From assembly GCA_045661305.1 (NCBI GenBank), contig JAZRFJ010000028.1, forward strand, positions 5,234-69,233: 64,000 nucleotides of DNA, read 5' to 3'. This DNA is from Clostridia bacterium. GTDB lineage: Bacteria; Bacillota; Clostridia; UMGS1840. A program made the position numbers and the translations under genes. The first letter of the stretch is position 1. Each line of letters opens with the position of its first letter. The notes beneath the pieces were generated by a model. The model saw only the letters and a program-made list of their open reading frames with translations, made no database searches and was not told where the DNA came from. Shown one piece after another: positions 1,269 to 22,825 of this stretch.

Positions 1269-1278
1269 GGATTAAAAA

Positions 1279-1322
1279 GGGGAATTGCCGAAAGTTACAA
1301 AAAATTCCCCCTCCCCCCTATA
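1279..1322 (-). repeat. G-rich hairpin repeat family G, copy G1
   Basis: GGGGAATT (1279-1286) pairs with AATTCCCC (1303-1310), followed by CTCCCCCCTATA. The reverse complement TATAGGGGGGAGGGGGAA...CTTTCGG...TTCCCC aligns with 21837-21871. Confidence 0.6.
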
Positions 1323-1347
1323 AAAAACAACAACAAGGAGAACTAAG

Positions 1348-15363: not shown

Positions 15364-15414
15364 AGTGTTTCTCCTTTCTTTCGGAAGTTCGTGTCAAGAC
15401 CAGATTAAAAATTA

Positions 15415-15705
15415 TTATTTATCATAATATTTATATCCGCAAAAAGGACATTTTGGATAATCTAAATCGTGCTTCTTAGCACATTTGGGACATTGGATTT
15501 GTGCTATACCATTCTCTTCTTGATGTTCAGTATGATAAAACTCAATTTTACCACATCTCTCACATGAATATATATCAACTTCCATTGCACCAGCAATTAT
15601 ATTCGGCAAATCGCCTAAAATCCAACCAGTTTCTCCTAATTGAATTTTTCTTGAACCACTGTATTTCATTTTATTATTACATCTTAAACATACTAACTCT
15701 TTCAT
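15415..15705 (-). CDS. hypothetical double zinc-ribbon protein
   Basis: 96 aa with CLRC...CERC and CPKC...CPFC pairs. RBS AAAGGAGA. Confidence 0.55.
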   Translation of the reverse strand: MKELVCLRCNNKMKYSGSRKIQLGETGWILGDLPNIIAGAMEVDIYSCERCGKIEFYHTEHQEENGIAQIQCPKCAKKHDLDYPKCPFCGYKYYDK

Positions 15706-15717
15706 ATCCTATCTCCT

Positions 15718-15734
15718 TTCGGAAACTTTCGACA
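15718..15734 (-). promoter_or_regulatory. tandem Spo0A-box-like heptamers (TGTCGAA agt TTCCGAA) in the leader of 15415-15705
   Basis: The minus strand reads TGTCGAA (perfect 0A box), a 3-bp spacer, then TTCCGAA (6/7 to TGNCGAA). This is the same 7+3+7 geometry as the tandem 0A boxes of B. subtilis abrB. Confidence 0.45.
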
Positions 15735-15740
15735 TTCTTT

Positions 15741-15936
15741 ATATAAAGACTGTATAATCCGGATGCCAAGCATTTTTTATGAATTGACAACTCCGTTGTC
15801 ATGAATTGGCTCTGCCATGAATTCTCACTGACGCTCCATGAATTGAATTGCCTTAATGCACGAAGTGCAATTCATGAGCTGTAAGGCTCAATTCATGAAA
15901 CCTTTGATTTCAATTCATGCCGCAGGCAATTCATTG
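15741..15936 (+). repeat. repeat family R1, copy A: promoter-like module plus an array of short hairpins punctuated by CATGAATT (x4) then AATTCATG (x4)
   Basis: Direct-repeat partner at 18241-18438. Octamers start at 15779, 15801, 15817, 15838 and at 15869, 15890, 15912, 15928. Each inter-octamer segment is a small palindrome. The left end carries TGTATAAT on plus and TTGGCA-N17-TTATAT on minus. Confidence 0.85.
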
Positions 15937-15955
15937 CAGTCACAGACCGCATACG

Positions 15956-16123
15956 CTCGTGCCAAGTCAGGCGAACAGTGAATAATAGGACCTACTATTT
16001 TCTGTTCTTGTTTTCCTAAACAAAATCCATCAGAACCCGCAGGAATATTAGATTTTCCTGCCCGATATGTAAATATTTATTATCGGCAAACTAATCTTTT
16101 AAATTGTATGGACTTGACACAAG
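15956..16123. repeat. repeat family R2, copy A: 168-bp unit bounded by 13-bp terminal inverted repeats (MITE-like, switch-like, or structured RNA)
   Basis: CTCGTGCCAAGTC ... GACTTGACACAAG. Both ends are conserved with copy B and the centre has diverged apart from a covarying hairpin at 16039-16061. The unit ends 20 nt from the stop codon of 16143-16679. Confidence 0.8.
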
Positions 16124-16142
16124 TATGTAAACCCACTAAAAA

Positions 16143-16679
16143 CTATAAATTAAGTTTTCCTTTCATCTGTTTTGCATAAGGAATATCATCTATGCATATT
16201 TCAACAAACTGTATTACTGCATTGGCATAATCATTCCAATCTGCATCCTCATCTAAAATGACTTCATCAACGCCTAAATACTGATAACCACTTTTACAAG
16301 GCAACAACAAAGACACATACTTGCCTTGCATATCATCCCAACCAAGATGTATATATCTTTTTCCTTTTATTGCTTTTTTGAAACCTTTAATGCCATAATA
16401 TTTTTCTTCAAAAGTATTTTTACCCGAAAAATCATTGTATGATTCGTGCTGATTCCATTGTTCAATACCATATTTAATTTTTTCAGCTAGTTCTTCTTTG
16501 GTATATGGGCTTTTTAATTCTATAGGGTAATACGCTGTACAAAACCACGGCTCGTTTATTATTGTTCCATCCGCTAATTTTTGAGGTTCGTTGGTTTCAC
16601 TTTGCGGAAAAATAACGATGTCTTTTTCCTCATTCACATAAATATCAATCCATCTGAATTCTTCAAAATTAACTTTCAT
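16143..16679 (-). CDS. hypothetical cytoplasmic protein (acidic, about 178 aa)
   Basis: ORF 16143-16721 in the track. I prefer the start at MKVNFEEF (16679) because of the RBS GAAAGGTG. No family recognised with confidence. Size and acidity are compatible with an immunity-type protein, but that is a guess. Confidence 0.6.
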   Translation of the reverse strand: MKVNFEEFRWIDIYVNEEKDIVIFPQSETNEPQKLADGTIINEPWFCTAYYPIELKSPYTKEELAEKIKYGIEQWNQHESYNDFSGKNTFEEKYYGIKGFKKAIKGKRYIHLGWDDMQGKYVSLLLPCKSGYQYLGVDEVILDEDADWNDYANAVIQFVEICIDDIPYAKQMKGKLNL

Positions 16680-16711
16680 TTTTCCACACCTTTCTACATC
16701 ATTATATACCA

Positions 16712-16728
16712 TTCGACACAATTCTTAC
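16712..16728 (-). promoter_or_regulatory. Spo0A-box-like site (GTAAGAA ttg TGTCGAA) upstream of 16143-16679
   Basis: Perfect TGTCGAA on minus (16718-16712) with a degenerate partner 3 bp upstream. TGGTATATAAT (extended -10-like) follows immediately downstream. Confidence 0.4.
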
Positions 16729-16913
16729 TCGTGTCAAGTCAGGAGAACAGTGAATAATAGGAACTACTATTTTTGCCCTATTTTTTCAACTGTTTTTCTT
16801 TTAACACTTTTCCCTAGAACCCGTGAGAACACTGGATTTTCTCGCATTCGATAGTATATGTAAATATCAAAATCGGCAAACTAATCTTTTAAATTGTATG
16901 GACTTGACACGAG
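16728..16913. repeat. repeat family R2, copy B: 186-bp unit with perfect 13-bp terminal inverted repeats
   Basis: CTCGTGTCAAGTC (16728-16740) and GACTTGACACGAG (16901-16913) are exact reverse complements. Internal hairpin at 16823-16845. The unit ends 20 nt from the stop codon of 16933-17541. Confidence 0.85.
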
Positions 16914-16932
16914 TAACATGAATTTTAATTCT

Positions 16933-17541
16933 TCAATACAAGGATACGGGCTCCCAACCATAATGCTTGATGTAATTAATATCTAATCCGTTATGCTCTG
17001 CGTACATTCGCATGAATTCTATCTCTGCTTGATCGTTATCGTGATGGGTCATAAATTTATCATAAAGACCTGTATAGCCTTTTGTAAACTCTTTGATACT
17101 TTCAGCATAGTGCTCTCCGTCACCAGCTTTCTCAACAGATACAACAACATATCCGTTTTCTGTTTCTTTTAAATGAAAACAAGCAGGCATCTCTCCGCCA
17201 CCACCCTGCACCATTGTATCCCCCTCTAAGCGATAACCACCCGACCAGAAATTACCAAACACCAAATGCTCTCCATCACGGTCCGTCTCTTCTAAAATCA
17301 CAAACGAAGGAATCCAAACATCACCATAGCTTGCGTGACGCTCTGCTTCTTCATTAAACCAGTCACAAATAGCTGCAATAGCAAGGTTATCACCCACATA
17401 TACAAACGAGGGCATCTGTGTACCATCCTTTTGAGTAATATTAAATTGTGGTCCTCCGGAAGCAAGCGGTGGTTTTTCTGTCTTTTGACCGCAGCTGCAC
17501 AAAAGAAAAACAATCAAAAATAACACTAATATTTTTTTCAT
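16933..17541 (-). CDS. hypothetical lipoprotein
   Basis: 202 aa. Signal peptide with lipobox (LFLIVFLLCSC, Cys at the cleavage site). No recognised domain. Confidence 0.7.
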   Translation of the reverse strand: MKKILVLFLIVFLLCSCGQKTEKPPLASGGPQFNITQKDGTQMPSFVYVGDNLAIAAICDWFNEEAERHASYGDVWIPSFVILEETDRDGEHLVFGNFWSGGYRLEGDTMVQGGGGEMPACFHLKETENGYVVVSVEKAGDGEHYAESIKEFTKGYTGLYDKFMTHHDNDQAEIEFMRMYAEHNGLDINYIKHYGWEPVSLY

Positions 17542-17627
17542 AAAAACACTTCCTTTATATTATTTTCATATATCATATCAAAATAAGTGTGCTATAAACC
17601 TGACTTTTCTATCATTATTCAATAAAC

Positions 17628-17644
17628 TTCGACACAATTCGACT
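17628..17644 (-). promoter_or_regulatory. tandem Spo0A-box-like heptamers (AGTCGAA ttg TGTCGAA) upstream of the lipoprotein gene
   Basis: The minus strand reads CTTGACA aaa GTCGAA ttg TGTCGAA. This is a perfect box plus a 6/7 box with a 3-bp spacer, directly downstream of a TTGACA hexamer. Confidence 0.45.
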
Positions 17645-17729
17645 TTTGTCAAGACCGGCTAAAAAAATCACATCTGTATAAAAGCAAGCATATAATATAC
17701 AAAAAAGAAAAATTTTGTAGGTGATTTAT

Positions 17730-20380: not shown

Positions 20381-21712
20381 TTACAGCTTTTTCTTTTCGT
20401 TTCTTTCACGGATATAGAACTTTATAGGTGTTCCTGTATAATCAAATGCACTTCTTATCCTGTTTTCAAGATATCTTTCATAAGAAAAGTGCATCAATCT
20501 TACATCGTTTACAAATATTACAAACTGAGGGGGAGTAATATCTGATTGAACTCCGTATAAAATTTTAAGTCTTCTTCCTTTATCCGTAGGCGGCTGTACT
20601 CTTGCAGTTGCATCTGCAATGAGGTCATTTAACATACCTGTTGTAATTCTTCTTTTTGAATTTTCATAAACGCGGTCAATCATTTCAAAAATGCCTTCTA
20701 CTCTCTGTCCTGTCTTTGCTGAAATAAACATTGACGGAGCGTACATCATATATGGAAATTCTTCCATTACTTCTTTTTTCATTTCGTCCATCGTGTGAGT
20801 ATTTTTTTCAACGATATCCCATTTGTTTATAACAAATATTGAAGCTTTACCCTCGTTATGAGCATATCCTGCAATCTTTGTATCCTGTTCTGTCGGACCT
20901 TCAGTTCCGTCAATAAGAATAAGACAAACATCTGCTCTTTCAACAGCAGTATATGAGCGTAAAACAGAATATTTTTCAACCTTTTCGTTAACTCTGCTTT
21001 TTCTTCTTATTCCCGCAGTATCAATAAACAAATATTTTCTTCCGTCTTTTTCGACATAGCTGTCGATTGCATCTCTCGTTGTTCCGGGAATATTTGAAAC
21101 AATCATTCTTTCTTCGCCCAAAATACAGTTTACCAAAGAAGATTTGCCTGCATTTGGTTTTCCTACGACAGCAACCTTTATTATGTCTTCTTCCTCCTCG
21201 GAAATATCATCTGACGGAAAGCCTTTTACCACTTCGTCAAGAAGGTCACCTGTTCCCATGCCCTGAATAGCACTTATAGCAACAGGCTCACCCATTCCAA
21301 GATTGAAAAATTCGTAATATTCCATAGGTGGCTCACCCGGAGAATCGCACTTATTAACAGCAAGGACTATCGGTTTTTTAGATTTCATAAGTATCTTTGC
21401 AACTTCCTCATCATCAGGAAGAAGTCCTGTGCGAACATCTGTTAAAAATATAATTACATCAGCAGTTTCAATAGCTATTTCCGCCTGCGTACGCATCATA
21501 GCTGTTATTTCATCATCGCTGTCAGGCTCAATACCGCCTGTGTCAATAAGAAGAAAGGCTTTGTCAAGCCACTGTGCCTCGGACATTATTCTGTCTCTTG
21601 TTACACCAGGAGTATCTTCAACTATTGAAACCCTCTTCCCCACTATTCTGTTAAAAAGCTGAGATTTACCCACATTTGGGCGTCCTACTATTGCAACTAT
21701 CGGTTTTGACAT
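20381..21712 (-). CDS. der: ribosome biogenesis GTPase Der (EngA)
   Basis: Two tandem GTPase domains (GRPNVGKS and GKPNAGKS P-loops) plus a KH-like C-terminus. ATG at 21712 is preferred to the TTG at 21721. Confidence 0.95.
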   Translation of the reverse strand: MSKPIVAIVGRPNVGKSQLFNRIVGKRVSIVEDTPGVTRDRIMSEAQWLDKAFLLIDTGGIEPDSDDEITAMMRTQAEIAIETADVIIFLTDVRTGLLPDDEEVAKILMKSKKPIVLAVNKCDSPGEPPMEYYEFFNLGMGEPVAISAIQGMGTGDLLDEVVKGFPSDDISEEEEDIIKVAVVGKPNAGKSSLVNCILGEERMIVSNIPGTTRDAIDSYVEKDGRKYLFIDTAGIRRKSRVNEKVEKYSVLRSYTAVERADVCLILIDGTEGPTEQDTKIAGYAHNEGKASIFVINKWDIVEKNTHTMDEMKKEVMEEFPYMMYAPSMFISAKTGQRVEGIFEMIDRVYENSKRRITTGMLNDLIADATARVQPPTDKGRRLKILYGVQSDITPPQFVIFVNDVRLMHFSYERYLENRIRSAFDYTGTPIKFYIRERNEKKKL

Positions 21713-21743
21713 ACTTCTCAATCCTTTCTTTTCATCTTAATTC

Positions 21744-21800
21744 TTACTTTATTTTATTTAAAAATTCTTTCATATCAGCCATCGGAGTGATGGAGCGTTT
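21744..21800 (-). pseudogene. remnant of a PfkB-kinase 3' end (...MADMKEFLNKIK stop)
   Basis: The minus-strand reading ends MKEFLNKIK-stop (TAA at 21746-21744), against MKEFLDSIK-stop for the intact kinase at 21950. The 15-bp identical core TAAAAATTCTTTCAT occurs at 21759-21773 and 21965-21979. The upstream extent of the remnant is unclear. Confidence 0.45.
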
Positions 21801-21836
21801 ATAATTTGTATTAATAAATAAAACTGTATTTTTCTC

Positions 21837-21929
21837 TATAGGGGGATGGGGGAACCTTTCGGTGTTTCCCCTTTGTCCCCCTATGACCCCTATCCCCCTC
21901 CTAGCGATCGCTCAATCGCCGCGAGGCTG
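21837..21929 (+). repeat. G/C-rich structured block containing repeat family G, copy G2
   Basis: TATAGGGGGATGGGGGAACCTTTCGGTGTTTCCCC aligns with the reverse complement of 1279-1322. The block is a local GC spike in an AT-rich genome. Further hairpins are GCGAT cgctca ATCGC and GCC gcga GGC, and it contains GCGATCGC. Confidence 0.6.
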
Positions 21930-21949
21930 AATGTCTTAATTTTATATGT

Positions 21950-22825
21950 TTACTTTATACTATCTAAAAATTCTTTCATGTTACTTGGTACTGCCTCTTT
22001 GTTTGAAACAACAAATCCGCTTACCTGCGAAGCGAAGTCCATACAGGTACACAAATCGTTTCCATTAAAATATTTAAAGAGAAACGCTGCTCCAAAGCTA
22101 TCTCCTGCACCTACGGTTGAAACTACCTCAACCTTTTCTGCCTTACAAATAAGCACTTTGTCATTTTTTATATCATACGCATATGAGCCGTCTTTTCCTG
22201 CAGTAATTATTATAATTTCAAGTTTGGGGAACTTCTCTTTTAATCTTACAAAGGCATCTTTTACTCCGTATATTTCTCCAAACACAAGCTTACACACAAT
22301 TGGAAGCTCCTCATCGCTTATTTTAACGATATCGGAATTTTCAAGACATAACATTACACTTTCCTTTGAATAAAAAGGAGGTCTTATGTTAAGGTCTGTA
22401 TATATTTTCCTGATTTTCTCGCTTTTTATAACCTTTTTTATCGCATCAGTATTATGTTTCCCACGCAAAGCCAGAGTTCCGAACACCAACACATCAAATT
22501 CTTCATTTAAAGTATCAGCATCAATATAATCATAAGCTACATCATTTTTTAAATCATATGACGGAACAAAATTCTTATCAAGTGTGACATCGCATCTGCC
22601 TGTAATCTTATCATTAAGTCTTGCGATATATTTTGTGTTTATACCCATAGACTTCATTTCTTCTACTGCTTTTTTTCCTAAATCGTCTTCACCGACAGCA
22701 GACATAACAAAAGCTTCACCACCTAATAAAGAAAAGTGGGACGCTAAATTAAGCGGTGCACCGCCAATGCAAGATTTGTCAGGATAAACATCGTATAAAA
22801 CTTCTCCGAAAGATAACAACTTCAT
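21950..22825 (-). CDS. PfkB-family carbohydrate kinase (fructokinase-like)
   Basis: 291 aa with N-terminal FGEVLYDV...GGAPLN and C-terminal VSTVGAGDSFGAAF (PfkB signature 2). Confidence 0.85.
   Translation of the reverse strand: MKLLSFGEVLYDVYPDKSCIGGAPLNLASHFSLLGGEAFVMSAVGEDDLGKKAVEEMKSMGINTKYIARLNDKITGRCDVTLDKNFVPSYDLKNDVAYDYIDADTLNEEFDVLVFGTLALRGKHNTDAIKKVIKSEKIRKIYTDLNIRPPFYSKESVMLCLENSDIVKISDEELPIVCKLVFGEIYGVKDAFVRLKEKFPKLEIIIITAGKDGSYAYDIKNDKVLICKAEKVEVVSTVGAGDSFGAAFLFKYFNGNDLCTCMDFASQVSGFVVSNKEAVPSNMKEFLDSIK

Follow-up and report, generated by a model that had tools for sequence, protein, structure and literature searches.

G, a probable non-autonomous structured repeat at a polymorphic kinase-der locus of uncultured Oscillospiraceae

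Well-studied bacteria commonly carry small structured repeats, but hardly any have been charted in uncultured Clostridia of the gut and rumen. Most descriptions of REP/RAYT systems come from Proteobacteria, and miniature inverted-repeat transposable elements (MITEs) of the RUP type have inverted repeats at their termini and are flanked by short duplications of fixed length. The direct repeats that flank the insertion sequences IS1634 and IS1549 range from 8 to 514 bp depending on the copy (PMC2266710). Here, we analyze a 64,000-nt stretch of a Clostridia bacterium (GenBank assembly GCA_045661305.1, contig JAZRFJ010000028.1, positions 5,234 to 69,233; hereafter the window), in which the spacer between a PfkB-family carbohydrate kinase gene and the GTPase gene der holds a GC-rich element that we call G, and we compare this locus with related sequences, designated by L numbers. 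G is an undescribed, ~100-nt non-coding repeat specific to a small clade of uncultured Oscillospiraceae (gut-type Clostridia), and our literature searches returned no description of it. We consider it probable that G is a non-autonomous structured interspersed repeat, REP- or MITE-like in lifestyle, that is, a new family of a known kind (small non-coding interspersed repeats). Its insertion at kinase-der is best read as having come with an unusually long target duplication of 39-46 bp, and not as the scar of a large integrated element.

Copies, composition and fold of the G repeat

The GC spike in the der-kinase spacer, to which a sequence-only reading of the window had drawn attention, is the strongest peak of the whole 64 kb, reaching 65% GC in 60-nt windows (21838-21938) against a window mean of 34.4%. 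On the minus strand, on which both neighboring genes lie, the 101-nt core of G (21829-21929; covariance-model match of 128.5 bits) reads CAGCCTCGCGGCG..AGCGATCGCT..GGAGGGGGATAGGGG, followed by a long hairpin and TATAGAGAAAAA. It comprises a 5' domain (21897-21929), two unpaired G-tracts (G-tracts 1-2, 21887-21898), a 47-nt hairpin (21838-21884), and an A-rich tail (21829-21837).

Copies of G are dispersed. When one genome per species was scanned with an exact pattern, five loci were found, including three in one uncultured Oscillospiraceae metagenome-assembled genome (MAG; CAZZPN01), among them its kinase-der locus; such a scan misses mutated copies and therefore gives no copy numbers. With a covariance model built from five G copies (R1), we identified full copies that occupy six separate intergenic loci in five related genomes of uncultured Oscillospiraceae. 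R1 matches are in the window (21823-21933), in L001, L007, L003, and L002, twice in L006, where one copy carries a 26-nt internal deletion, and, as a diverged copy, in L015 (61 bits). R1 also detected a distant relative in an Eubacteriales MAG (L005 5655-5758). At least four copies are present in a fragmentary MAG, and metagenome contigs from two samples break inside G, as expected of a multi-copy repeat. The genes downstream of the copies (der, ackA, spmB, a deacetylase gene, and a gene for a secreted protein) are functionally unrelated.

Some individual copies are worth describing. The L005 relative is a near-perfect palindrome with 23-nt arms, TATAGGGGGAAGGG(C/G)GAAACTTTTT, directly past a gene end. 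In the internally deleted copy (L006 1496-1580), the 26 missing nucleotides are exactly those between G-tract 1 and G-tract 4, and a polysaccharide deacetylase gene has its ribosome-binding site immediately after the A-tail.

The window holds a second, partial and diverged relative of G at 1275-1327 (plus strand), which consists of the 3' hairpin module, CCCCC-TC-CCCCCC-TATA, and an A-tail. The homology between the spacer block and 1279-1322, from which a repeat family had been proposed on the letters alone, was confirmed: an 18-nt motif occurs twice, against 0.02 occurrences expected, and the local alignment of G with 1275-1327 scores 38, whereas the best of 191 background chunks reaches 27. 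The partial copy, with only the 3' module, is missed by the full R1 model. It lies in a 325-nt intergenic region (1023-1347) that has further short hairpins (GTGTAC-CTTT-GTACAC and CCAAAGC-TTTG-CTTTGG), upstream of an open reading frame (ORF; 1348-1851) encoding an acidic protein with no Pfam match.

No known family or mobilizing enzyme could be matched to G. Rfam 15 gave no gathering-score match in the 64 kb, and the best scores within 21500-22200 were 12-16 bits against thresholds of 50-83. G had no match in phage and plasmid collections or in pattern scans of JGI metagenome contigs and IMG/VR. The 58 ORFs of 110 aa or more in the window all belong to housekeeping or sporulation genes, with no transposase, integrase, RAYT, or reverse transcriptase among them, and the window contains no related autonomous insertion sequence.

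The fold of G is more stable than that of shuffled sequences (z = -4.6 on the gene strand and z = -3.4 on the plus strand). The conserved structure is the 47-nt hairpin at 21838-21884, which places a GAAA loop (within 21855-21862, from fold and pair counts) on the gene strand, and to which the consensus fold adds the 5' domain. Every full copy keeps this hairpin, as does the L005 relative, and compensatory changes are present: in the pair counts, 97.8% of the cells in the consensus pairing are paired and six pairs show double changes, one being an A-U to U-A swap at the hairpin base in L002, and most of this covariation comes from a single distant sequence (L005) that was aligned by the model itself. 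By contrast, the GCGAT cgctca ATCGC hairpin, which the sequence-only reading had included in its description of the element, is not a family feature, as it is limited to the window copy; in the other copies, its arm falls on a variable triplet. An alternative hairpin pairing G-tracts 1-2 with the C-tracts was dropped, as it is not conserved in the variants with CTAA (see below).

Two further sequence features stand out. Four G-tracts lie on the gene strand at 21855-21898 (G5 N3 G4 N5 G5 N4-5 G4-5) and are kept in all three subfamilies, including L015 and L005; only G-tracts 3-4 pair with the two C-tracts, and the four tracts might have the potential to form a G-quadruplex or to bind a protein. 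In addition, the perfect 10-nt palindrome AGCGATCGCT of the 5' domain (21903-21912), within which GCGATCGC lies, is invariant in all close copies and changed in the diverged L015 copy. The 3' end of G (...CCCCCTATARAGAAAAA) is constant in all close copies, whereas the 5' leader varies: L003 and one L006 copy (L006b) have in common 17-21 extra 5' nucleotides that are missing from the window and L007. G is ~100 nt in size, or up to ~122 nt with the A-rich leader.

Such a conserved fold raises the possibility that G is a host-selected cis-acting structure, such as a protein-binding site, a protector of mRNA 3' ends, or an element for processing or insulation between genes that are transcribed together, with old copies maintained by purifying selection and with absence reflecting loss. 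This explanation, which we regard as conceivable and yet fairly unlikely, draws on the stable fold with its GNRA loop on the gene strand and conserved pairing, on the orientation of the copies, six of the eight full copies being co-oriented with both flanking genes, and on sequence conservation. The G copies are 88-97% identical to each other, and the window and L007 copies are 95% identical, whereas in the same comparison the flanking genes are 82-92% and the kinase genes 68-76% identical. In its degree of conservation, G equals a ribosomal-protein gene, an indication that a sequence-specific function or partner exists. At odds with a host function are the unrelated roles of the downstream genes, the two copies that are antisense to their neighbors (L006 757-867 and L015), and the absence of an Rfam match. 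Moreover, the hairpin lacks the U-tract that would make G an intrinsic terminator: it runs into UAUAGAGAAAAA, and a terminator scan detected no terminator-like site in G on either strand.

The kinase gene tree separates two lineages, one with the window and L001 (88.6% DNA identity) and one with L002 and L007 (81%), to which L008/L009 are sister; kinase identity between the two lineages is 72-74%. The variants of G group by genome, with ATAG in the window lineage, CTAA in all three full-length CAZZPN01 copies, and TTAA in L002; the internally deleted CAZZPN01 copy does not have this stretch.

Filled and empty sites

Alignment of orthologous regions bears out the proposal that the GC-rich block is an insertion, and reveals four structural states of kinase-der. 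In the window, L011, and L007, the kinase end (K) is followed by G, an AT-rich segment, and a second copy of the kinase end (K'). In L001/L014, the order is K, 57 nt, G, and the der leader, with no K' and with the 8-nt AATTAAGA on both sides. In L002, L008, and L009, the site is empty, and the two genes are separated by an uninterrupted 23-nt spacer. In L012 and L013, the kinase and G are both absent; these two sequences are ~95% identical to the window on both sides of the missing kinase. G marks hot spots of strain-level rearrangement, here with one housekeeping locus occurring in four structural states that include loss of the kinase.

The same alternation of filled and empty sites is found at other loci. 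G is present between pta and ackA in L002, whose kinase-der site is empty, whereas the window, L001, and L012 lack it at pta-ackA. The spmA-spmB and spmB-pda (deacetylase) junctions hold G in L006, whereas these genes overlap or are 3-56 nt apart in four relatives (L015-L018), and the site occupied by G in L015 is empty in L006 and L018. Insertion/absence polymorphism is thus present at four loci. This polymorphism bears directly on the view that G is an old host structure lost from some genomes: at these four loci, the relatives and outgroups have tight or overlapping junctions, and gain therefore fits better than repeated precise loss.

The alternative states have some peculiarities of their own. 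At the kinase-less locus (L012 5900-5960 and L013 3470-3535, corresponding to window 21738-22818), ATG GAA GAA TAA and a ..TATAAAGTAA remnant precede der. At kinase-der in L001 (5603-5765, with L014 1-70), the left junction is the same as in the window, after AATTAAGA, and the 57-nt arm before G is AT-rich. This arm resembles the segment that follows G in L007, an arrangement that would fit a shift of G with respect to this segment; a gapped comparison of the two gives a modest signal, with a score of 40 that is reached by 0.2% of AT-rich background segments, while the comparison with the AT-rich segment of the window itself gives p ~0.1. We also considered whether the insert in L001 is circularly permuted relative to that of the window; the ungapped 11-17-nt matches are at noise level in AT-rich DNA, and the resemblance was not used as evidence.

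The duplicated kinase end and other flanking repeats

The 228-nt spacer of the window can be resolved into parts, all read on the minus strand. The kinase gene (21950-22825; 291 aa, with homologues bearing PF00294) ends in K (21934-21979), which comprises the last 10 kinase codons, the stop codon, and 16 further nucleotides, and extends up to AATTAAGA; its boundaries are identical in L007. A CATT linker (21930-21933) separates K from G. Between G and K' lies a 55-nt AT-rich segment (21774-21828) that is part of the insert: empty sites do not have it, and L007 has a homologous counterpart (92.6% identity over 27 nt, E = 2e-5). The whole insert is ~170 nt and has no credible ORF. K' (21735-21773), a non-coding duplicate of the kinase 3' end, joins the 22-nt der leader with its ribosome-binding site (21713-21734) directly, as at empty sites, and der follows (20381-21712/21721, ATG at 21712).

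The duplication of the kinase 3' end, reported from the sequence as an identical 15-bp core at an offset of 206 bp, stands well above chance. The stretches 21744-21773 and 21950-21979 are identical at 27 of 30 positions, with a start-to-start offset of 206 and an identical 15-mer core, and none of 1000 shuffles of the flanks reached the score of this repeat (p < 0.001). With one indel allowed, the similarity extends beyond the stop codon to the common AATTAAGA, giving 46 nt (21934-21979) against 39 nt (21735-21773). The block is bounded even more cleanly in L007, where 38 of 39 positions are identical (p < 0.001).

The sequence-only reading had further described K' as a remnant of the kinase reading frame. 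The frame across K' does read ...SITPMADMKEFLNKIK*, as described. Upstream of K', however, a profile of 120 kinase C-termini found no match to this frame, and Smith-Waterman alignments to PfkB C-termini did not differ from those of shuffled sequences (p = 0.28-0.73). A longer decayed PfkB C-terminus was therefore rejected, and the supposed remnant is the DNA repeat alone. We also rejected a reading of the K/K' differences as those of a diversity-generating retroelement (DGR), for which we looked for a nearby reverse transcriptase, a template/variable repeat (TR/VR) pair longer than ~100 bp, and adenine-specific differences: the window has no reverse transcriptase, and the repeat is only 30-46 nt long. 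All three mismatches between K and K' in the window are A in K', which is not significant given that K' is 57% A, and the single mismatch in L007 runs opposite to this pattern.

A duplicated gene end around a small insert had been called the classical footprint of site-specific integration into a gene terminus. In that case, an integrative element with an attachment site resembling the kinase 3' end would have recombined into the kinase terminus, K and K' would be attL and attR, and nearly all of the cargo would later have been deleted, leaving ~170 nt. The direct repeats with their identical 15-nt core do cover a gene 3' end, both the window and L007 show a sharp start of the repeat at ATGAAAGAA, and the sequence beside K' is unrelated to the kinase, as would be the case for an element-borne arm. 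Against this stands the presence of G at five other unrelated sites, none of which repeats the kinase end, and its presence at kinase-der in L001/L014 without K'. Neither the insert nor its vicinity holds a gene or pseudogene for a recombinase, and the rest of the 64 kb encodes none either. Finally, the repeat around the L002 insertion copies the local target there and not the kinase end, and flanking repeats made from the local target argue against an attachment site carried by the element. An integration scar is for these reasons quite unlikely, and the footprint interpretation did not survive the comparison with other G sites.

Short direct repeats were looked for at the other G copies, in line with a suggestion made from the sequence, and were found at some of them. 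At pta-ackA in L002, an exact 12-mer, CAAGTTAAAATT, extendable to ~21 nt, abuts the G tail (p ~0.009). L001 has only the 8-nt flanking repeat, no flanking repeat is detectable at L003, L006a, L006b, and L015, and no overlap is seen when the empty sites of spmA-spmB are aligned. We therefore rejected the idea that a flanking duplication marks every copy of G: only the repeats of the window, L007, and L002 reach significance. Long flanking repeats occur only at kinase-der and, more weakly, at one other locus. The erratic length of the repeats argues against a conventional transposase with a fixed stagger.

Variable repeats and a constant 3' end could also bring to mind a spread of G via an RNA intermediate, by retroposition primed at a nicked target in the manner of short interspersed nuclear elements (SINEs). 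SINE-like retroposition would explain the constant 3' end with its A-rich tail, the variable 5' extent, and duplications of variable length, here 0-46 nt, and the downstream repeat does abut the A-tail in L002 and L001/L014. In the window and L007, however, the tail and the downstream repeat are 55-68 nt apart, the A-tail is short and interrupted in a genome of 66% A+T, and the window encodes no reverse transcriptase. We know of no established case in bacteria of target-primed retroposition of non-intron RNAs, which also counts against this route, and we regard it as highly improbable.

If G is instead a non-autonomous interspersed repeat, as we favor, the following sequence of events may account for the locus. 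As G encodes nothing, it would be moved or copied by a function encoded elsewhere, acting in trans, and this function may recognize the conserved 47-nt TATAGGGGG...CCCCCTATA hairpin together with the invariant 5' domain. G and 55-70 nt of AT-rich DNA would have entered an ancestral kinase-der spacer of ~23-30 nt, with the insertion bracketed by a 39-46-bp target duplication that took in the final 10 codons of the kinase with the stop codon and 9-16 nt beyond it. The duplication leaves the kinase frame intact on one side and the native upstream region of der intact on the other. It probably arose at insertion, through widely staggered breaks or template switching, and not earlier, and recombination between K and K' could regenerate exactly the empty configuration of the relatives. 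This 39-46-bp duplication, with both neighbors intact, shows how a tightly packed operon tolerates an insertion.

The view of G as a host-selected structure would account for the duplicated kinase end differently, as an unrelated local duplication that keeps the upstream signals of der downstream of G. Weak sigma-70-like hexamer pairs (9/12) do lie inside both K' (21751-21778) and K (21939-21968), and these promoter-like hexamers would suit such a role. On the strength of these hexamers, one might speculate that K' preserves a der promoter downstream of G.

Several points weigh against an interspersed, mobile G. All comparisons of filled and empty sites are between species or strains, and none captures a demonstrably recent event. 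No cognate enzyme was found in host genomes that were read only in fragments. The insert ends have no terminal inverted repeats, the leader (AAAACAAAAG...) and the tail (...AGAAAAA) both being A-rich, and the only inverted repeat of G is internal (21838-21884). Inserts carry variable AT-rich DNA besides G, on the 5' side at most loci and on the 3' side at kinase-der. The flanking repeats are inconsistent, at 39-46 nt here, ~12-21 nt in L002, 8 nt in L001, and none detectable at four copies, and the long duplication may be an accident of this locus and not an outcome of the way in which G inserts. A host function, and not recent mobility, could lie behind the very high conservation of G, and the covariation depends largely on L005, as noted above.

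Apart from the spacer itself, two observations concern the surrounding genes. Within the pta-ackA-yceD-rpmF-rSAM-kinase-der-plsY block, the kinase is the fastest-evolving gene by sliding identity. Farther away, window ~15400-17650 and L011 4438-6268 are unrelated DNA in genomes that are otherwise 93-98% identical; this strain-variable segment lies between a Cu/Zn superoxide dismutase gene and LytR-family genes, and its window ORFs 16143-16721 and 16933-17541 have no Pfam match.

Comparison with known mobile and structured elements

Elements that enter the 3' end of a gene are the first point of comparison. Islands and prophages at gene 3' ends are bracketed by a duplicated gene end (attL/attR) and leave the gene intact, as is the case at kinase-der, but the cargo of G is ~170 nt without a recombinase, G occurs at many different sites, and a sister genome has G at kinase-der without the duplicated gene end. 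IS1634 and IS1549 resemble G in that their flanking direct repeats vary widely between copies and are sometimes tens of bp long. These insertion sequences are 1.5-2 kb in length, with a DDE transposase and terminal inverted repeats, whereas G has neither coding capacity nor such ends; no insertion sequence of this type was found in the sequences examined, and nothing links G to that group.

Closer in size are the BOX, RUP, and SPRITE repeats of pneumococcus (PMC3049150) and other stem-loop families (PMC2267715), which, like G, are foldable non-coding intergenic repeats of ~100 nt. They also show insertion polymorphism between strains and are often located inside operons and co-transcribed. There is no sequence similarity between them and G, and G is far more GC-rich than its host genome. 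With regard to MITEs in general, G has the dispersed, polymorphic copies of such elements but has neither terminal inverted repeats nor a short duplication of fixed length.

REP/REPIN sequences and their Y1/HUH-type RAYT partners (PMC3116915, PMC3337134) share several features with G. Both are short, imperfect extragenic palindromes with a higher GC content than the DNA around them. Both are also non-coding and dispersed, and they are strongly conserved within a lineage and vertically persistent, with no obligatory target duplication. G differs in its length of ~100 nt, its non-palindromic 5' domain, and its two extra G-tracts, as well as in the lack of a RAYT gene in the window; in addition, flanking duplications of 40 bp have not been reported for REPs. 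A more far-reaching possibility, which we consider unlikely, is that G is the non-autonomous partner of a mobilization system so far undescribed in Clostridia, either a hairpin-recognizing single-strand HUH/RAYT-like system or an RNA-templated SINE-like one. Such a system would produce duplications ranging from none to ~46 bp and might also cause local shifts, as the different positions of G in L001 and the window suggest.

The family also has practical consequences, as G breaks metagenome assemblies and therefore explains some contig ends. If the mobilizing enzyme is identified, the range of REP/RAYT-like or other hairpin-directed systems could be extended to a new phylum.

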